A stretch of 64,000 nucleotides of DNA from Mytilus edulis (lineage: Eukaryota). The position numbers and the translations under genes were made by a program. The DNA is taken from assembly GCF_963676685.1 (NCBI RefSeq), contig NC_092352.1:54994001-55058000 (forward strand), written 5' to 3'. Shown one piece after another: positions 815 through 57,917 of the stretch (position 1 is the first letter of the stretch; each line of letters begins with the position of its first letter). Under the pieces are notes generated by a model, which was given only the letters and a program-made list of their open reading frames with translations, did no database searches and was not told the origin of the DNA.

Positions 815-1062
815 TTCACGCATCGGTGACGATGATGTAATGGAATTTGATGCGACTGTCATACAAGTGAGAGGTTTAGCTAGCTATAAAACCAGGTTCA
901 ATCCACCATTTTCTACATTTGAAAATGCATGTACCAAGTCAGGAATATGACAGTTCTTGTCCATTCGTTTTTGATGCGTTTTGGTTTTTGATTTTGCCAT
1001 GTGATTATGGACTTTCCGAATTGATTTTCCTCTGAGTTCAGTATTTTTGTGATTTTACTTTT
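815..1062 (+). mobile_element. Family B 3' end (similar short copies at about 9240-9480, 14240-14425, 14455-14675, 31040-31190, 38240-38520, 46710-47000)
   Basis: actgtcatacaagtgagaggtttagctagctataaaacc...gtaccaagtcaggaatatgacagt...gattttactttt. Confidence 0.8.
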
Positions 1063-11521: not shown

Positions 11522-11712
11522 AAGATTACCTTAGCTGTATTTGGCAAAACTTTTAGGAATTTTGGTTCTCAATGCTCTTCAACTTCGTACTTTATTTGGC
11601 CTTTTTAACTATTTTGGATTCGAGCGTCACTGATGAGTCTTTTGTAGACGAAACGCGCGTCTGGCGTATATACTAAATTTAGTCCTGGTATCTATGATGA
11701 GTTTATTTGCAA
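11522..11712 (+). mobile_element. Partial retrozyme-like repeat (second subtype) with intact hammerhead
   Basis: agattaccttagctgtatttggc...caatgctcttcaact...hammerhead...cctggtatctatgatgag, homologous to 33569-33929. Confidence 0.8.
11624..11667 (+). ncRNA. Minimal type-I hammerhead ribozyme, intact core
   Basis: GCGUCA-CUGAUGA-GUCU(UUUGU)AGAC-GAAA-CGCGCG-UC^-UGGCGU: stem I, stem II, palindromic stem III (ACGCGCGU); predicted cleavage after 11661. Confidence 0.9.
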
Positions 11713-13394: not shown

Positions 13395-13957
13395 AATGGA
13401 TGTCAGCGACTGCTAGATATGTTAAAGAGAACAAATCTATAACTGGGCATCGTACTCTCAGATATGTACTTAGTTTCTGTTTGTTGTTGGGATATACAAG
13501 TACCAGGCCACGTCCACTCTGTGTAATATTTATATTTGTATCCATCTGATAAGTAAAGTTTTTGCAACTGATTTTTATAGTTAGTTCTTTTGTTGTACTG
13601 TTACAACACTGTCCCATGTTAGGGGAGGGTTGGGGTTCCGCTTACATGTTTAACCCCGCCTCTTTCTGCATGTATGTGCCTGACCAAGTCAGGAGCCTGT
13701 AGTTAAGTGGTCGTCGTATGTTTATGTGTTATATATTTGTTTTTCGTTCATTTTTTGTATATAAATTAGGCCGTTAGTTTTCTCGTTTGAATTGTTTTAC
13801 ATTGTCATTTCGGGGCCTTTTACAGCTGACTATGCGGTATTGGCTTTGATCATTGTTGGAGGCAGTACGGTGATCTATAGTTGTTAATTTCTGTGTCATT
13901 TGGTCTCTTGTGGAGAGTTGTATCATTGGCAATCATACCACATCTTCTTTTTTATAT
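13395..13957 (+). mobile_element. Family D non-coding retroelement 3' region (others: 55665-56000 plus; 34300-34900, 39885-40180, 41805-41975, 7218-7280 minus; 63170-63220 plus)
   Basis: Recurrent tail cattggcaatcataccacatcttctttttt; internal ttaaccccgcc..cctg..caagtcagg module. Confidence 0.7.
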
Positions 13958-25489: not shown

Positions 25490-27110
25490 AAAAATAAAAA
25501 CAGTATATGACAGGCTCCAATACATGCTACACAGAAGAACAAGTGGTCAGTATGCTGCAGATTTTTTTATCGACAACATATTTGTTGAATTTGGAGACAG
25601 ACTTTTTCAACAAATTGTCGCAAATCCTATGGGAACGAACTGTGTGCCCCTTGTTGCCTACCTCTTCTTTCTTATTTTCATATAAATCGGAGTTCCTTTA
25701 GATACTTGTCAAACACAAGAAGATCAAAGAAACCAGATTATTTAATTTCACTTTCAGATATATTAATGATGTTCTTTCCATAAACAATCCGAACTTTTCT
25801 GATTGGGTTCCCTTAATATATTCCCCAGAACTAGAAATTAAATAAACAACATACACGGCTTCCTTCGCCGCATTTTATGACTTATATCTCGAATTTGACA
25901 TACATGGTCATCTCAGTACCCGAATCTATGACAAACGAGACGATTTTAATTTTAAAATTATAAATTTCCCCCACCTTAGTAGCAATATACCAACTTCACC
26001 TGCATATTGGATATGCTTTTCCAAACTTATTCAAAATTCAAGAGCTTGCAGCTCCTACTCAGACTTTGTAAAATGTCACCAGTGTCTGAGCAGAAAGTTA
26101 ATGAACCAGAGGTATTTCGCAGAACGTCTCGTCCTTTTTCTAAAGTTCATCGGAAGGTCCCAAGACCTTGCTGATAAATATTCCGTTGCAACTTCACAAA
26201 TAATACAATACGGTCTTGATGTATATATTCTGAGTACTGACATTGTTTACCACTGGACGTTAAGCAACCAACAATTAATCAATCTGACATTGTTTATCAT
26301 CTTAACAACGTGTTATATTATTCTTTTATTTATCTTTGTTCTATTATTAATATTACTGTTATTGGTTGGATTGTTTTCTCTGATATTCATTTGACGTTGC
26401 TCGGTACTTTAACATCCCGTCAAGGATCATTTTTGTGATGTGTTTTGTATATTCGACTTTTTGTATTTCTTTGGTTCTTATAACGAGTACTTTATAAGAT
26501 CCCGTCATCATGTTATTGTTCTATTATATGTTATGTTTTAGTTATTTTATAAATTTAAAAATACGTTGAACGACAAACGACATAATTATTATTAATAACG
26601 CAGTGGTAAAAACCATTTTTTGATTCTTAGAAATTCTAAAGAACTTTTGAACAATTTAAAATCTTGGTTTTTTTCTGAAATAAATTCCAACATACTTTTG
26701 ATTTCTTAACCCTGTATGCCAACATTCCCCATTTGAAATTATAAAATTGTTTTGTATAAACATTGAACGACAACATTTTTCCAGACATTTTTTTGGTTTA
26801 ATTGTAACACAGTGATGACTACTGTACCCATATTGTGACGATTTTATTTATTATGTCTGTTTTGTTCACATATCGTTGTAAATATAACGGAATTTGATGA
26901 GACTATCGTTCAAGTGAAAGGTTAGCGCTATAAAACCAGATTCAATCCACCATTTCTACATTTAAAAATGCCTCTTTCAAGTCAGGAATATGACAGTTGT
27001 TGTCCATTCGTTTTTGATGTGTTTTGTCATTTGATTTTGCCATGTGATTAGGGGCTTTCTGATTAAATTTTCCTCGAAGTTCAGTATTGTTGTGATTTTC
27101 TTTTTTTTAT
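25490..27110 (+). mobile_element. Penelope-like (Naiad-type) family B pseudogene: RT plus long 3'UTR
   Basis: Translates as FIDNIFVEFG..FQQIV.NPMGTNC.PL, FRYINDVLS, ELEIK*TT, IYDKRDDFNF..NFPHLSSNIPTSPAY, with a frameshift and TAG/TAA stops; followed by the family B 3'UTR ending ttgtgattttcttttt. Confidence 0.8.
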
Positions 27111-32359: not shown

Positions 32360-33092
32360 TTGCAAAAAGAGGCAGCTGTTATCTGCTCTTTTGTCGGGTT
32401 ATTTTCATTCTCAATTATAATTTTTGACACAACCTTTTTCAACTTTTGATCTTCAGTGCTGTACAACTTTGTACTTTTTTTCACTTTCGATCTTTTATAT
32501 CTGGGCGTCACTGTTGAGTCTTGTGTGAACACGGCGCGTTTTTGGCGTATTGAATTTTAAACCTGATGCTTTTTGTTATCTATTAAGCACGTGTTTCTTT
32601 GTCTAATACGTTCTCCTATTAATTTGTATTGTAGTCCTGTAATATTATGTTGTCATTTCAATGTTATATTTAACATTGCCATTAAAGTGCGAGGTTTGGC
32701 ATGCCACAAAACTAGGTTCAACCCACCATTTTTCCTTTAAAAATGTCCTGTACCAAGTCAGGAATATGGCCATTGTTATATTATTGTTCGTTTCTGTGTG
32801 TTTGTTTGTTTTCTCATATTTTTGAGTGTAAATTCACATTGCGATAAGACGTGTCACGGTACTTGTCTATCCCAAATTCATGTATTTGGTTTTGATGTTA
32901 TATTTGTTATTCTCGTGGGATTTTGCCTGATGCTTGGTCCGTTTCTGTGTGTGTTACATTTTAGTGTTGTGTCGTTGTTCTCCTCTTATATTTAATGCGT
33001 TTCCCTCGGTTTTAGTTTGTTACCCCGATTTTGTTTTTTGTCCATGGATTTGTGAGTTTTGAACAGCGGTATACTACTGTTGCCTTTATTTA
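32360..33092 (+). mobile_element. Family C non-coding composite retroelement: decayed retrozyme segment, shared 3' module and specific tail
   Basis: Colinear with 44250-45008; ends gaacagcggtatactactgttgcctttattta. Confidence 0.75.
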
Positions 33093-33568: not shown

Positions 33569-33929
33569 TAAATAGTTATCAAAGGTACCAGGATTATAAT
33601 TTAGTACGCCAGACGCGCGTTTCGTCTACATAAGACTCATCAGTGACGCTCAAATCAAAAATATTTATAAACCCAAACAAGTACAAAGTTGAAGAGCATT
33701 GAGGATCCAAAATTCCAAAAAGTTGTGTCAAATACGGCTAAGGTTATCTATGCCTGGGATAAGAAAATCCTTAGTTTTTCAAAAAGTTCAAAGTTTTGTA
33801 TACAGGAAATTTATAAAAATGACCACATTATTGATATTCATGTCTACACCGAAGTGTTGACTACTGGGCTGGTGATACCCTCGGGGACGAAACGTCCACC
33901 AGCAGTGGCATCGACCCAGTGGTATAAAT
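33569..33929 (-). mobile_element. Complete ~356-bp hammerhead-containing monomer (non-LTR retrozyme-like)
   Basis: Bounded by TAAAT direct repeats (33569-73 and 33925-29), contains an intact hammerhead, and is homologous to several other copies in the window. Confidence 0.8.
33606..33649 (-). ncRNA. Minimal type-I hammerhead ribozyme, intact core
   Basis: Reverse complement reads GCGUCA CUGAUGA GUCU UAUGU AGAC GAAA CGCGCG UC UGGCGU. Confidence 0.9.
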
Positions 33930-38935: not shown

Positions 38936-39094
38936 CAATAGTTATCAAAGGTACCAGGATTATAATTAAGTACGCCAGACGCGCGTTTTGTCTAAACAAG
39001 ACTCATCAGTGACGCTCATATCAAAATATTTATAAAGCCAAACAAGAACAAAGTTGAAGAGCATTGAATATTCAAAATTCCAAAAGTTGTCCTG
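38936..39094 (-). mobile_element. Partial retrozyme-like repeat, interrupted by a Harbinger-type MITE
   Basis: Close match to 33570-33725; appears to resume weakly at about 40614-40637. Confidence 0.75.
38972..39015 (-). ncRNA. Hammerhead ribozyme with G12A core mutation, probably inactive
   Basis: Same fold, but GAAA is replaced by AAAA (position 38989). Confidence 0.8.
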
Positions 39095-41176: not shown

Positions 41177-41705
41177 TTTGGAGTATATATCTCCCAATTG
41201 ATACGATATTCCCGTGCTTACATTTCCTATCATGATTTTCTTGATAGAGGGTTACTGCTCTCAAGGAAGCTATTAAACCAAGAGTTCCAAATGGTGAAGT
41301 TGAAATCATCCCTTCGTAAATTTTACGGACGCCATCACGAGTTGGTTGACCGTTATGGAATAACCGTTTCACAAATGATATCGGATATGTTCCTTACGTC
41401 GTAACTACAATCCCCTTCCCTTTCATGAATGTGACCTACCGAATTAGACTATTTACCGGATTTGTAATCACATAAGCAACACGACGGGTGCCACATGTGG
41501 AGCAGGATCTGCTTACCCTTCCGGAGCACCTGAGATCACCCCTAGTTTTTGGTGGGGTTCGTGTTGTTTATTCTTTAGTTTTCTATGTTGTGTCATGTGT
41601 ACTATTGTTTTTCTGTTTGTCTTTTTCATTTTTAGCCATGGCGTTGTCAGTTTGTTTTAGATTTATGAGTTTGACTGTCCCTTTGGTATCTTTCGTCCCT
41701 CTTTT
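41177..41705 (+). mobile_element. Family A copy, 5'-truncated, near-identical to 24290-24817
   Basis: Only a handful of substitutions relative to the copy at 24 kb. Confidence 0.85.
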
Positions 41706-42699: not shown

Positions 42700-45150
42700 A
42701 TCAAAAGTAAATTCACAAAGCTACTGTACTGAAAATTCAAAAAGGACAACCCCTCACCAATGGCAATATCAAAAGCTCAAACACATCGAACTAATGGAAA
42801 ACAAATGTCATATTCCTGACTTGATAAGACATTTTTTTATTTAGAAAATAGTGGATTTAACCTGGTTTCAAAGCTGGCTAACCCTCTCACTTGTATGACA
42901 GTCACATAAAATTCCATCATATTGACAACGATGTGCGAACAAAACAAACAGACTTAATATAATCTCAATCACCACAAAAAACAATCAAATATGTTCCAGT
43001 AGACACTTGTTAAAAACCAAAGAAGCCATTTCATTTTATTTTCATTCAGATATATTGATGATGTTTTTTCCATTAACAGTCCAAACTTTTCTGATTGGAT
43101 TCAATTTGCATATTCCAAAAACTAGAAATTATAAAAACAACATAAACGGCTTCCTCCTCCTCCTCGTTTAAAGACTTAACCTCGAACTAGGACCCCCCCC
43201 CCCCCCACAACTAGACATAAGCATTAATCTCAGTATCTAAATCAATGACAAGCCAGACGATTTTCATTTTGAAATTGTCAATCTTCCTTACCTAAGTAGC
43301 AATATTACAACTTCACCTGCATATGGGATATGCATTTCTCAACTTATTCGGTATTCTAGATCTTGCCGCTTTATAAAACGTTACCAGTGAGCAGAAGGTA
43401 TATTACCAGGGCTATGTCAAAGAAAGTCGCGTCCTTCTAAAAAAACATATAAGAAGATACCTTGGTGTAGGGTTTGAATGATTCGTTCATTTTTGAAGAC
43501 CCTACATCAACTGTAAGGTGAAGATCAGGAATAAAAGCCCTGTTCATTAATATTTTTAATTTTTTTTCTATGTTTTGTGTGCGATTTTGTCCCATGTACA
43601 TATTCTCCATATTCTTTTATTTTCTATTCAATACTTTGTTCATAAATATTACACATCAACTTCAAAAATAATACATGATGGTCCTGAAGTATAGATGTTA
43701 GGTACTGACGTTATTATCATCTTAAAAACGTGTATAGAATTCTTTTATTTGTCTTTGAAAAGTATTTACCTTTAATGTTTCGTCAATTTTTGGTTATATG
43801 GCTCATAACTTGTGCTAAAGTGTTATTGTGCTATGGTATTTTTTTGTATTCTTGTATTTCATTTAATGTGCTTTGTCTATATGCCTTTTTTGTCTGTATT
43901 ATTTTTGGCAAATTTGTTTGTTTATATTGATTAAGATTATAACTCAATGTGGACCGTTGTATCCCTAATTATGACCTTTACCTATTATATCCGTTGGATT
44001 TGTACACACATTGTTGTCGGCCTAATAGAAATTTGAGCGACAGTAAAGCAAATGAGAGGTTTAGCTAGCTTTAAAACCAGGTTTGATCCATTATTTGTTT
44101 ATGACGTCACTTGGCGTAGAGGTTTAAACGTATTCGGATGTGTCTTCTTTTGTGTTTCAAATGTCTGGTTATGTAAATGTATTTCAGTTGTTTCCTGTAA
44201 TTAGTTAATACTTCAGCTTTATCATGTACTTTTTTTGAATATTCATTTTATTAAATTTACTGTTTGCAAAAGTATAAATTACTCAAAATTATAGGGATTT
44301 TCTGGTAACTTAACAGAAAACCCTTGCCGTTTTTGGCACAACCTTTTTGATCTTTTGGTCCTCGATGCTGTTCAACTTTGTACTCGTTTCGGCTTTCAAA
44401 CTTTTGTATCTGTGCGTCACACATTGGTCTTGTGTGGACAAAATACACTTCTGGCGTATTAAAATTTTGAACTTGTTGCCTTTTGTTGGCTGTTGTTCGT
44501 GTGATTCTTTGTCAATTGTGTTCTCCAATTTATTTATATTGTAGTCCTGTGTTGTCATTTTGATGTTATATTTCACATGGCCATAAAAGTGCGAGGTTTG
44601 GCATGCCACAAAACCAGGTTCAACCCACCATTTTTTCCTTTAAAAATGCCCTGTACCAAGTCAGGAATATGGTCATTGTTATATTATAGTTCGTTTCTGT
44701 GTGTATTACATTATAACGTTGTGTCGTTTGCTTTCTCTTATTTTTGAGTGTAAATTCACATTGCGATAAGACGTGTCACGGTACTTGTCTATCCCAAATT
44801 CATGTATTTGGTTTTGATGTTATATATATATGTTATATTTGTTATTCTCGTGGGATTTTGTCTATGTGTGTTACATTTTAGTGTTATGTCGTTGTTCTCC
44901 TCTTATATTTAATGCGTTTCCCTCGGTTTTAGTTTGTTATCCCGATTTTGTTTTTTGTCCATGGATTTATGAGTTTTGAACAGCGGTATACTACTGTTGC
45001 CTTTATTTACATAGGAAATGCCTCTACCAAATCATGAATATGGTTTGTTTTCCATTGGTTTGATGTGATTGAGCTTTCGATTTGGCCATTTGATAAGGAT
45101 TACCTATTTGAATGTTCCTATGAGCTCACTATTTTTGTTATTTTATTTTT
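42700..45150 (+). mobile_element. Family B insertion with an inverted 3'-end copy at its 5' side and a nested family C element
   Basis: Minus-strand 3'UTR at 42700-42995 abuts plus-strand RT starting at about 43000 (FRYIDDV at about 43046-43066); the 3'UTR is interrupted at about 44100-45008. Confidence 0.7.
44100..45008 (+). mobile_element. Family C copy nested in a family B 3'UTR
   Basis: Same organisation as 32360-33092; the host element resumes at acataggaaatgcc. Confidence 0.75.
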
Positions 45151-46072
45151 TTGCATACACAAATAAATGAAATTATACGAACGAAACGGATTGGCATTCT
45201 CGATTCAATTTATATCAGCAAGACTGTCGGAACGCATGTGGAAAGTAGGGGTTGGTGTTGTTGAGACATCACGAAATCAGTCCATGAATGAATCAATCAA
45301 AAGCGGCTTTAGTTATGCAATACAGACAAAAAATAGTGGCACATAATAATCACAAATCATTTTTCGTCAGCAAAACAACTGAAAAGCTGTAAGAAAAGTC
45401 GTTAAGCTTTCATAATACATATTCCTTTTTTCAGCGGAATATTTGTTCATTTTAAACAATGATTGGTTTAAATTGAAGAAATGACGAATGCGATGCATGA
45501 ATTATTTCTTTTCTATTATGTCTGTTCGTCCTTTTGATTTTTAGCCTTTGGTATCTTTCGCTCCCATTTAAGTAAAATATTTGTCTTTATAAATTATTCC
45601 TTTGTTTCCTTCAAAATAGTACCATAAGTCAATGCGTTTGTGCTATCTTGTGCAATCTGTGCAACTTCTGCACTTTTCGTAAAATTGTTGGTTTGTCTGA
45701 AGGTATATTCTGATCTAGTTTATGACTGAAAATGTAGATAAGTTTACATACATTTGACATTCTTCCTGTGACTTACGATGAAAACTGTTGATGTAGCCTT
45801 TAACGTTCCTTCAACACAATATTGTATTGAGATATTCAAACTATTTGAAGACTTTGTAGACATCAGATATCTCTATTGCGTATTCTGCAATCTGTCTCAG
45901 ACTTTTGGTATAGAAAAAAACAACTTGAAGTGTAACATCTGGATACTGAAATTGGATGACTGATTTGTCTAACATATAATTTATACGTACAATGACTGAT
46001 TTGTCTTGCATTGTAAGTTATATAAGGCACAAGTTGTTCAAACGGAGTTACAAAATTATAAACGAACAAAAT

Positions 46073-51168: not shown

Positions 51169-52523
51169 TCATAAATGTTGTTTTGTTGCTGTTTGTAAAC
51201 TGTTATACAGTAATGAATAACCTTTACCGAGTTGTATTACAACATCAAATTGGTAAAGAGTGTTACTTTTTAAGTTTCTGATTTGATGATTTAGCACCAT
51301 GTTAGGTGTTTGATGTCTAATTTTCATACATTTCACTTTTTTACTATCAATAACTGGAGATTGGTTCTTATTACTACACTGATTATAATTCCGCCGCCGT
51401 TTCCGTCGGACTGAAATTTCTTTTTGATATATACAAAATTTCCGTCTTGATTTCGTTACTCGCCAACCTATAGTTAATGAATTACTTGTAGTACTATTGT
51501 CAACCAGAAACACTTCCGATTTCTGAGGCAAGATAGGGTACCTAAGTTTTGACTGTTTTCTAGATACCACTAATCTAGCAGTCTTTGGAGCATCTCTTTT
51601 TCGGCTAACTATATCTATGAAATAAGTATCCGCCTTCAAATTTTCAAGTGTAAAATTGGAAGAACGTTTCACTTTTTTCACAAAAACTGACTCACCACGT
51701 ATGGAACCACGTGTTACTTTTAACGTCACTTTACCAGTACAAGAATGGACGGCAAGAAATAGATCACTGGTATTTTTAAGGTCATATTTAAAATCAAATC
51801 TTAATTTTGATTTTTTAAACTCTAACTCTTGAAGTTTTCCATCTCTCAATTTTCGAATTCTGTCCCGTTGCTTCCGTTTTTTTGTCTTTACTTCTAATTT
51901 TTTATATGCACTACTCATATTAGTCCGCTTATTAATCGCATACACATTTACGAAATAAGTTTTCCCAGGTCTAGCCTGGGTATAAATATATTTTGTATTT
52001 GTATCTACACAGGTATAGTGAATATCTCTTGGTTTCACTTTTTTCACTGGCCTTGCTTTACTCTGGAATTTTTTTGGAACTTCGTCCTCCCACGGAAAAA
52101 AGAATCCTCTACTCTTGGATGCTACCGGCAATTTATCTCCAAACATATTAGACATGAGTGAACAATAGGTATCAGAACTCTTTTTAGCACTCACAGATAC
52201 ACAATACGTTATAATATTCCCATAAGGGGTCTCGTCCTGACTACGGTTCCAAGAAACTGTGAAACTCTTCCGCCGTATGCTATCTGCACGAATTGCGGAA
52301 TTTCTAGGTAAAGATGGATAAAATGTACTATCCCTTGCAAGCTTTTTTAATCGAAGGAAGAATTTTACATAAGTGTCACTTTCAATTGGCCTTAAGAACA
52401 CTGTATAAACTCCAGTGGAATTAACGCTTCTTTGAAAAGTATGAGCCTCTGAACCCACATACGAATCCAACTGTATTCCTGCTGGATTTGTTGGTTTTAC
52501 TTGCTCTTCAAATAATGGATCAT
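51169..52523 (-). CDS. NDNF: NDNF-like secreted FN3-domain protein, terminal coding exon
   Basis: 433-aa ORF matches NDNF motifs recalled for the family: YPSLP..SW, YCVSV, CVDTN..PGKTYFVNVYAIN..NMSSAY, LRDGK, VHSCTG, KFCIY, NQC, LKSNTLYQFDV, GYSLLY. The frame extends to a tttcag acceptor (AG at 52525-52524), adding (D)DPLFEEQVKPTNPAGIQL; the listed TTG start is not a real start. Confidence 0.92.
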
Positions 52524-53907
52524 CTGAAATGGGATAAATTTTGCATATTTATAAACGTCAGTTCTAATCAATTAAACTTATAATGCGCAAAGGATATGAT
52601 AATAGTATATTTGATGCTAATATATATATATGTGTGTGTGTGCATGTGCGTGTGTTAAGCATCATTACCATTTTTGACAGCATGATGTTTCACCTTGTGT
52701 TTTTTATTCAATTCAAATTTAGAAACAAATTGCAAGGAAACTACGATCAAATTTAAGTTGCTGTTAACTACTTTGCATGCATGGTACCTTGACGATCTTT
52801 TATTTCATGATTTATTGCTTACATGTATTACATTTCTTTGGAAAAAATCGTTTCTTTTGGGTAAAATAAAATATTTGACATTGAAAACATCTTAGCAAAA
52901 ATGAATAAAGATACTGCTGTTTTAAAAGCAAGAAGCTGCAGAGATTACAGAACGAATGACATTGAATAAAACGTAAAATTGTGATTAATTTTGGTAATAA
53001 AAAATAGATAAATATAACTTTTTATGCATAATATTTATCCCTTCTTGCAGTACGAGAGGTTCATTGTTCTTTTACGCTAACGAGATTTCCAAGACCATGT
53101 GATTGATTTTGTACCTAAGTGACCTTTCTTGCAGTCTTGGCACAATTCAACATGTCGAAAACTCATTATACTCTATGCATAAAAATAACACAGCGTTATA
53201 ATTCATAGTTCTGTAAAACGTTGTCATTTACTTGTCTAAAATTACACAGTTGTAATTAGTGGTTTCCAAACTTCAAAGAAAATTATTATTAAAAACACCA
53301 TCCAAGTGGAATTCCAGAAATAAGAACAATACATAGACCTAACACTACGATAACATAAAAAAAAATATCTGCATACATAATGACGGTCTGGGATAAAGCT
53401 TGCCATACGCTATTTCGATTATTGAAAATATATATGTTTTGTCTGCTCATTGTAATTGGTTGCAGAAGTTTTTTTAGGTGACGAACTCTGATGATGCACT
53501 GTTGGCATCGCTGCAACGTGGATGTCAATGAGGAAACTGCAGTTTTAGTGTAAACAATGCATTCATATTGTAGATTTAACAGGACATGTACAATATGAAC
53601 TCGAAAATCATCTGGAAACTGATATATTAAGCACTAAAACGGATCGCAAGGTTCCGAGATCGATCGAGGCGATATCGAAAATCATAAGTAATGAATATTT
53701 ATCAAATATTTAGTGGCTGTTTGAGACAAACAGCCACTAAATATTTATGGTCTTTTTTCGTTTGTTTTTTTTATTTGCGATGGCGTTGCCACGTGTTTGA
53801 ATGTCCCTATGGTATCTGTCGCTTCTCTTTCATAAATAACTTTAACTCCATCAATATAAATAAAAGCTCATATTTATTTAAAATTTCCCTAATTTCTAAA
53901 AATTATA

Positions 53908-55554: not shown

Positions 55555-57917
55555 CTGGAAATAAATTACAAATGTATAATACATAGAAAAATATGACATC
55601 TCAATCTCTCCATTGTATCACCAGTGAACACTGAAAACAAAAACTTATTATTAGTTAATATTGGCTCTGAACTAGATGTCAGTAACAGTAAGTACTCTCA
55701 GATCTGTATTAAGTGTCGGGTTTGTTGTTGGGATGTATAAATACCCTGCCACTTCCGGTCTGTATTTTTGTTAGATGATTTTCTACATTGTATTATACTA
55801 GTAGTTTTAATGTTGTACTGTTACACCACACCACTGTCCCAGGTAGGATGAATGGTTTGATGCCTTCAAACAAGTTTAATCCCGCCATATTGTGTATGTA
55901 CCTCTCTCAAGCCAGGAGCCTGTGATTCAGTAATTGTCGTTCGTTGCTGTATATTATTTTGTTTTTCGATCAGTGTTCTTTGTGAATAAATCAGGCCTTC
56001 AGATTTTTTTTTTAAACTGTTTTGGCAATCAAAACACATTTTTTTTATTTATTAAAAGCCATTTATTGTGCTTATGTACCAAATCGAGAAATCTCGACCA
56101 TGTCTTGTTTTTTGTTGTTTGACTTTGTTTGCTTGTTTATTTTCTCAGAGGAGTCGGGTGTTTTCGTGGTTAGTCGAATATTTTCGTGGTTGGTAGGGTC
56201 TGTTTTAATGTCTTATATTTTCGGTAATTCAGGTTCTATGCGTTATTAAAGAAAAATCGACATGTCATTTTATTTTTGCCCCTTTTTGTGTCAGTGTTAT
56301 GTCTGTAATCGAAGTTTAAACCATTTTACACATGGTTTATAAGATGTGCGCTGAATTATTCAGAGTCGTTGCAGCATTTCATCTAAATTCACTTTCTGTC
56401 AGTTTGTCTTAGACAATACCAGAACGTTTCTATTTCAGGGTTGTATTTAATCCAGCGATTAACTTTGTTATGTCTAATGCAAAGTCTGTTGATTCTTTGA
56501 TAGCCTTTTTCATTTTCTTAACATCTTTTCAATCAATGTGAAATAAACGTTTATTATAAGAGAATTATAGAGTTGTTGAAAGGTGCAATGATTTCACAAA
56601 TGCATATGCAAAGATTCTTTTTTTAAACTCTAAATCTATCCTTGGAATGTGTAAATTACTTAAGAAATGCATTCCATCAAATCTTGAGTTCTTACTAATT
56701 GCGTAAATATACTATAAAAAGAATACTTGTCCTCACATAATTTCAAGGTCAAGAACACAGATTTTCAATATCAATGTCACATAATGTCAAGGTCAACATC
56801 GATGTGTTTAATTTAAACTCTATCACATTTCACATTAGAAAAAAAATTCTTACGGCAACATCTGACAAAAATTAGAAAAAGAAGATGCCAATAGTCGCTA
56901 AATCGAAAGCAACGTTAAATTAAGATGTCTAAACTTTGCAAATATTCATTAATATCTTGTGTTGCAATTCCAGGAGGCAAATAACGCCTTAAACTGTTCT
57001 CTTTTTGGGATATTATGCTTTTTTTAATTTTACATCTTAACCATGGTAACCACAATGGTGCTTGTTTCACCACAGAACACTTGATTTTTTAACACGGAAA
57101 TGTGTCCCGCGACTGTAACATAAAGTTCATGCACACTTTCATTACTATAAAATAAAATAAATCAGTCCTTAAAATTAACCTTTTGAAAATTTATTTTGAG
57201 ACAAAAGGTGTGCGGATGAATGGCCGAGGTATAATAAATTCCGCACTTTTACAATTTTGATGTAATACTATACATACGTATTCTTATTTACGGTGTGCTT
57301 GAACTTTGAGTGCAAGAGAAAATTGGAAAGTGCGTAATCTCGCAACCTTTCAATAACCGTAAAAGAAATTAATGAAATAATAGATCTGGATAATATCAGC
57401 GATGTAGCCTGTTCGGTAGCTGTAGTACAAGAAAATATGTTGACCAAAACCAATAGATAGCAAGATAGGAAGCTGGATTCGCATCATGTTGTAAAAAAGG
57501 GCGAACAAAATTCCGCCCAATTTTAGTAATTTATCATAGTTATAGTTATATAGTTATTATATAGTTATTATATAAAAACCACATTTACGTGCCATCATTT
57601 CAAGACGGCCTTGATCCATCGTATAAATTGGTACGCATTCTACGCCCCACCCCTGAAATTGTTCAACATACGGTTGTCTTAATAGTGTATGTATGTATTT
57701 GTTTTGTAATTGCTTGGCCCCTTATGCTTATTATTGTGCAAAACAATTTGTTATGTTAACTATTTATCTAAACCAGTGAACAGATATAGCGTTATCCACA
57801 ACAAGCCCCCAAAAAGGCCACCTTTATCTGTGATGAAGCACTTGCAGAACACATCATAATCAGAGTAAGGTAACAACTGACGAGGGAGTTTAAAATGTTG
57901 TATTAAACAATTTTAAA

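Follow-up and report, generated by a model that had tools for sequence, protein, structure and literature searches.

The window (the whole 64,000-nucleotide stretch of Mytilus edulis DNA analysed here) contains an RNA module at 44577..44676, inside a 5'-truncated retroelement copy of family C whose 5' end lies at -521 and whose 3' end lies near +385 from the predicted cleavage site (Table 1). This copy was apparently inserted in the P3 loop of an older family B copy, the halves of which flank it at 44038-44100 and 45010-45155. A 459-aa open frame on the minus strand (51169-52548) has no retroelement look and is probably a host-gene exon.

The initial annotation had described one fold with a compensatorily changing closing stem in families B, C and D, and this stem was indeed present in the sequence of B (855-863/946-954), C (44577-85/44668-76) and D (CAGGT at 55840-44, GCCTG at 55918-22). 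A GGGG/CCCC stem attributed to the D copy at 55831 was absent from that copy, which has decayed; a better-preserved D copy is present elsewhere in the window. The P4 hairpin motif occurred 14 times in the 64-kb window against 0.29 expected, and a profile of the module gave 103 matches in 1.0 Mb of unselected genome with fragments counted (~100 copies per Mb), which sorted into B, C and D plus two further families, E and F. Families B and C were alignable over the 91-nt module only (-39..+50 around the predicted cut), and D and E over 86 nt only, again the module. The terminal tails had been called unrelated, which does not hold throughout, as those of D and F are related over 419 nt.

Table 1 Features of the module and of related copies in the window (P, paired stem; T, pseudoknot; L, loop)
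Feature	Position	Strand	Basis or remark
Whole module, predicted type-P5 twister core, family C	44577..44676	+	Sequence, descriptor match, alignment
P5 arms closing the family C module	44577-44585 and 44668-44676	+	
P2 3' strand (GTGC), conserved G44593 (predicted general base), A44594, T1 3' strand (GGT)	44589..44597	+	Layouts in Table 1 of PMC8501958 and RF02684
Palindrome 1, TGGCATGCCA, loop-less, family-specific	44599..44608	+	Sequence; predicted between-copy duplex
Palindrome 2 (AACC-A-GGTT), ends one base before N-1; putative between-copy P1	44612..44620	+	
Predicted cleavage site C44621/A44622, then second conserved A	44621..44623	+	Homology to twister
P2 5' strand (CCC, one base under canonical) and T2 5' strand (AC)	44624..44628	+	Descriptor
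P3 hairpin (CATTTT/AAAATG), family-variable	44629..44648	+	
P4 (CCTG/CAGG), L4 = T, T1 strand ACC, AA, T2 strand GT	44650..44665	+	
5'-truncated family C Naiad copy carrying the module (3' UTR/pseudo-LTR only)	44100..45009	+	Ends relative to the site
Family B copy	855..954	+	One P4 mismatch; 3' end of published Naiad_Mgal matched
Second family C copy	32675..32773	+	Passes descriptor
Family D copy, fairly intact, ends approximate	13608..13704	+	
Family D copy; P2, T1 and P4 decayed	55833..55931	+	Missed by descriptor
Family B element end	25846..27110	+	RT C-terminal remnant 25846-26394, then decayed module near 26900-27000

The hosts of the module are Naiad Penelope-like retroelements, in which it lies in the 3' UTR/pseudo-LTR. 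The family C ORF encodes 1007 aa with an N-terminal GIY-YIG domain (138-226; E = 1.4e-4, 22.5 bits against a cut-off of 22.6), CxC and DKA motifs and a C-terminal RT (a weak RVT_1 match at 711-856), which are the hallmarks listed for Naiads in the relevant section of PMC8557442; the protein is 62% identical to that of family A. Across 30 C copies the 3' end was fixed and the 5' ends were ragged. An element 3' end lay directly upstream in 10/10 evaluable full-length C copies (one further copy had no 5' end visible), and in 8 of these 10 the upstream pseudo-LTR extended to the module, so that the ORF sits between two modules, as at locus L562, where modules 4555 nt apart flank it. Family C shares with the Naiads of PMC8557442 both protein layout and pseudo-LTRs, the latter arising from partial tandems. 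Family B, for its part, corresponds to the 3'-terminal sequence of the published Naiad_Mgal consensus. In family E, RT sequence was found about 580 nt upstream of the module, and the two longest D copies have 1280 nt in common that start with an RT remnant; no RT link was established for family F. Family C is thus not non-coding, and the earlier suggestion that C and D are non-coding elements mobilised in trans is unsupported, because C is autonomous and D has an RT remnant of its own.

Two further features of these families are recorded here. An E copy and a D copy lie 2.8 kb apart within a larger repeat unit of >3 kb with about 97% identity (loci L135-L150 and L191-L193). Family E carries an in-frame TGA opposite a cysteine just past the DKA motif in 14/14 covering copies (L532-L561, L564-L566), and its 3' UTR contains a SECIS-like match (L111:5796-5860; 27.5 bits against a cut-off of 35). 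By these sequence features, family E is likely a selenoprotein Naiad in mussel, a type known from spiders and clams only according to the account in PMC8557442; reading through the TGA at L565 gave no open frame of 300 aa.

From its sequence, the module very probably adopts the fold of a type-P5 (circularly permuted) twister on the plus strand. Its blocks run P5, P2', G-A, T1', linker, N|AA, P2, T2, P3, P4, L4, P4', P5', a permuted order with its ends in P5 that agrees with RF02684 and with the twister layouts in Table 1 of PMC8501958. The type-P5 twister (RF02684, clan CL00120; reviewed in PMC5408937) has the same succession P2'-GA-T1'-(P1 position)-N|AA-P2-T2-junction-P4-L4-P4', the same core G and A residues and two pseudoknots. 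The Naiad module differs from it in lacking a P1 hairpin and holding two palindromes instead, in having P3, in a B/C-clade P2 that consists of three base pairs and a bulge, in scoring below the Rfam cut-off and in residing in animal retroelements, and is best regarded as a twister variant. The core G and the A before the T1 strand were invariant in 14/14 alignment rows, and N|AA was present in every descriptor match (where the design required it) and, by eye, in 8/8 modules at published Naiad ends.

P2 has four base pairs in D, E and F (CCCC/GGGG, TCCC/GGGA or ACCC/GGGT) and in 5/8 published modules; in B, C, Bpla and Mphi it comprises 3 bp and a bulge, which in B and C is a pyrimidine opposite a three-base 5' strand. 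Young C copies and that at 44577..44676 also have a C-C mismatch in P2. A P2 of altered length might perturb the active site, according to a suggestion related in PMC5408937, and because their P2 is short the family B and C modules may be slower variants.

Base pairing was assessed in an alignment of 14 sequences, with P5 left out of the twister-pair counts and with the B/C P2 shifted one column by the aligner. Twister pairs were paired in 91.8% of 182 cells, with 14 cells altered on both sides, and none of 500 shuffles scored as high. Pairing was 97.6% in the 3-bp T1 pseudoknot, where two of three pairs changed on both sides, 100% in the 2-bp T2 pseudoknot (28/28 cells; GU, AU and GC) and 98.2% in P4, a stem with the inner G-C pair and loop U...A of twister. 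T1 reads CCC/GGG in D and E, ACC/GGT in B and C, and CCT/AGG in F; T2 variants comprise GC/GC, GC/GT, AC/GT and CC/GG overall. The number of pairs with two-sided change in this alignment was not above that of shuffles (341/500), and the stability of the monomer fold was not unusual (z = -1.21 for C, -1.50 for B, +1.14 for D, -0.95 for E and -1.18 for F). The proposal, made from the window alone, that Naiad elements carry a selected RNA structure that may process the transcript is supported.

We also inspected by eye the terminal 500-600 nt at the 3' side of 54/54 Naiad consensus sequences (File S5 of PMC8557442), a range that modules lying further upstream would escape. The same module was present in 8/54: Mgal, Bpla, Mphi, Scon and Mmer from bivalves, Movir-1 and Chem-4 from cnidarians and Mley from a ctenophore. 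These contribute further T1 sequences (CAC/GTG, CGA/TCG), all paired except for three outer pairs, which are U-U in Mphi, Scon and Mmer (3/8), and a paired T2 of CC/GG in two clam Naiads. Their P2, P4 and P5 stems differ in sequence and stay paired. Bpla and Mphi have a short P2 like that of B and C, with C rather than T as the bulged base.

A descriptor built on the twister block rules was applied in loose and strict versions to 1.0 Mb of unselected genome and to 10 controls. The genome gave 24 loose and 9 strict matches, and each of the controls gave 1-6 loose and 0 strict. Within the window the descriptor passed two C copies (sites 44621 and 32719) and one chance-like match; the B and D copies named in the initial annotation are damaged and failed. 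Phage twisters were also recovered, with 5/5 scanned phage loci above the RF02684 cut-off, and a loose-pattern scan of viral sequences returned ordinary P5 twisters only, which served as controls. In metagenome contigs matching the loose pattern, 120 loci among the matches listed contained 0 descriptor matches and no further animal cases.

In the window Rfam detected no family at cut-off, and at E ≤ 10 twister models matched neither the window nor a 10-kb locus that holds an intact E copy; a search of the genome with RF02684 found nothing among the 79 scored of about 31,000 candidates. The best Rfam twister match was a partial one to RF03160 (twister-P1) in a D copy (18.1 bits, E = 0.2), below cut-off. 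In a full-text literature search, with most subscription papers outside its scope, we found neither a paper that links Naiad or Penelope-like elements with twister nor a description of a dimeric twister. The main text of PMC8557442 contains the word 'twister' 0 times, and the search described there was for hammerheads only.

Within a single copy, P1 was absent: 8/8 mussel linkers formed 0 bp, compared with 4-8 bp in 3/3 phage P5 twisters. In place of the P1 hairpin, beside the cut site, the mussel linkers hold two loop-less palindromes. Palindrome 1 varies by family (for example, TGGCATGCCA, TAGCGCTA, GGGATCCC, TGAGATCTCA and TGGTACCA), and palindrome 2, which ends at the base before N-1, takes the forms AACC-A-GGTT, AACATGTT and AACGTT. 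The two together exceeded shuffles at p = 0.0002-0.0044 in 7/8 rows and 0.047 in a decayed F copy (F2), in tests devised after the sequences were seen and on families that share ancestry. The published modules are a more independent check: P1 hairpins were absent and both palindromes present by eye in 8/8, with seven different sequences for each, and palindrome 2 read AATC-T-GATT, AACC-T-GGTT, AACCGGTT, CACATGTG, CACGTG and AATCGATT besides the mussel form. The predicted gain from homodimer formation was -12 to -17 kcal/mol for mussel linkers versus -2 to -4 for phage linkers, and two-strand folding, by a method that ignores pseudoknots, predicted that palindrome 1 forms a duplex between copies in 4/4 families (-8 to -17 kcal/mol).

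Considering these features of sequence and predicted fold, we propose that self-cleavage of the Naiad module at N|AA likely takes place once two copies have paired by way of palindromes substituting for P1, and we rate paired self-cleavage as the most likely mechanism, at a probability of roughly 0.6. Palindrome 2 of two copies would form a single duplex, immediately ahead of the cut in either copy, and so provide both cores with P1, much like the palindromic stem III of the dimeric hammerheads described for other Penelope-like elements (PMC6765202); palindrome 1 would help to bring the copies together and may start the pairing. Simultaneous between-copy pairing of both palindromes with the cores closed would be topologically awkward. 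In a tandem transcript with two modules (4555 nt apart in C), two cuts would release a unit-length RNA, the ends of which could re-pair and be joined. Such release and joining have been proposed as the role of hammerheads in the other Penelope-like elements.

RNA evidence came from one raw run (X24, about 6% read) that covered C and E in both orientations and showed no pile-up of read starts or ends at the predicted site in either family. A depth step from 406 to 532 in the bin of the E site, in one orientation, was set aside because the opposite orientation has a step of the same size at another place. Genomic 5' truncations fell within 5 nt of the site in 1/30 young C copies, and 149 unselected copies showed no sharp 5'-truncation peak there. 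The absence of read ends weighs little, since the Poseidon hammerhead, for which a protein is needed for cleavage, cuts yet left no RNA-seq ends in the experiments related in PMC11167929.

The strongest competitor of paired self-cleavage, which we nevertheless consider unlikely, is that the twister cleaves as a P1-less monomer and that the palindromes pair RNAs for another reason, such as holding two templates for the RT or joining ends. P1 is dispensable in vitro, where a P1-less twister cleaves as a monomer (results given in PMC5408937), so a dimer may not be needed, and the twister variants with a poor P1 that occupy the 5' end of Schistosoma Perere-3 have activity (as reported in PMC8501958). 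Against a purely monomeric role, palindrome 2 stops exactly at the canonical end of P1 in all families and species seen.

Less probable again, and in line with the second idea of the initial annotation, is that a scaffold derived from twister has little or no cutting activity and gives the Naiad RT a signal for binding or dimerisation. The weak P2 of B and C, the lack of read ends or a truncation peak at the site, and the dispensability of the Poseidon hammerhead for insertion in vitro (an assay in PMC11167929) would all suit such a scaffold. However, the stems vary whereas the catalytic G, the adenines of L4 and the A that follows the cut stay the same across all families and three phyla, and the Poseidon hammerhead does cleave with protein, likewise with no RNA-seq ends.

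It is very improbable that the shared module reflects leftover homology or recombination among related retroelement families, with no selection on RNA structure. In dead genomic B copies, conservation of the core (0.81-0.92) was not clearly higher than that of the tail (0.84), as this explanation would have it, but the comparison has little power because dead copies decay neutrally. Compensatory changes in P2, P4, P5, T1, T2 and both palindromes extend across ctenophore, cnidarian and bivalve elements, and this explanation is largely refuted because the covariation spans phyla.

Least probable of all is the novel multibranch class first proposed, with a GTG/CAC stem enclosing a GGTTT/AAACC hairpin, which is consistent with the lack of an Rfam family above cut-off and with the similar inner stems returned by pseudoknot-free folding, but whose inner stems, which compete with both pseudoknots, were paired in 78.0% of cells with no two-sided change among the 14 sequences (covariation 0.016; 408/500 shuffles as high), whereas the twister pairs covary. 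The bulged C of Naiad_Bpla and Naiad_Mphi breaks GTG/CAC and fits a bulge, and once both pseudoknots are recognised the module maps to twister, type P5, rather than to a new ribozyme class.

Other motifs were seen in the same elements and in the window. The 3' end of family A carries a second conserved RNA motif, present at 41478-41566 on the plus strand and also in the 24590 region and at other places, which likewise has two palindromes (CCACATGTGG and TCCGGA at 41478-41566). It gave no Rfam match at E ≤ 10 and was recognised by eye in 12/54 published Naiads, from oysters, an ark shell, a pearl oyster, hemichordates, Clytia and a fish, with differing palindromes; an uncatalogued ribozyme is possible on this pattern. 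Seven Naiad ends in File S5 (Amil, Aacu, Anas, Plae, Obim, Ovul and Bfor) show, by eye, GAAA ahead of CTGATGA and may be rearranged hammerheads like those presented in part of PMC10085705. Another repeat family in the window gave hammerhead-like matches at 11624-11667 (+), 33606-33649 (-) and 38980-39018 (-), of which two are type I just below cut-off (33 and 32.5 bits versus 34) and one is a weak type III. A wider reading, to which we give somewhat less than even odds, is that a natural 'double twister' working only as a pair would process Naiad transcripts from ctenophores to bivalves, and that Naiads would swap several two-palindrome self-cleaving modules, one of them (that of family A) possibly a new ribozyme class.

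The module resembles the minimal, dimer-cleaving type I hammerheads in the pseudo-LTRs of canonical Penelope-like elements (sections of PMC6765202 and PMC7761336), with the same position in the element, the same tandem layout and a palindrome in lieu of a hairpin beside the cut. It differs from them in being of another ribozyme class and in having two palindromes rather than one; dimer cleavage has been shown for the hammerheads and is predicted for the Naiad module. The twister T-variants of Perere-3 (RTE clade, Schistosoma mansoni) are likewise retrotransposon twisters with a poor or missing P1, but in the portion of PMC8501958 devoted to them they are type P1, sit at the 5' end of a LINE and have P1 completed by flanking DNA. 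The Naiad module is type P5 and lies near a Penelope-like 3' end, and insertions do not start at the cut.

The finding would represent a possible first natural dimeric twister, and extrapolation from 103 matches in 1.0 Mb suggests that a single animal genome holds of the order of 100,000 copies derived from twister. Naiads have been presented as Penelope-like elements that thrive without hammerheads, with the suggestion that hammerheads are perhaps mere parasites of the elements (discussion in PMC8557442). The occurrence of a twister at the position of those hammerheads, likewise with a palindrome replacing a hairpin, points instead to paired self-cleavage as a requirement that unrelated ribozyme classes satisfy, and the likely pair-dependent cutting would explain how Naiads do without the hammerhead of their relatives.
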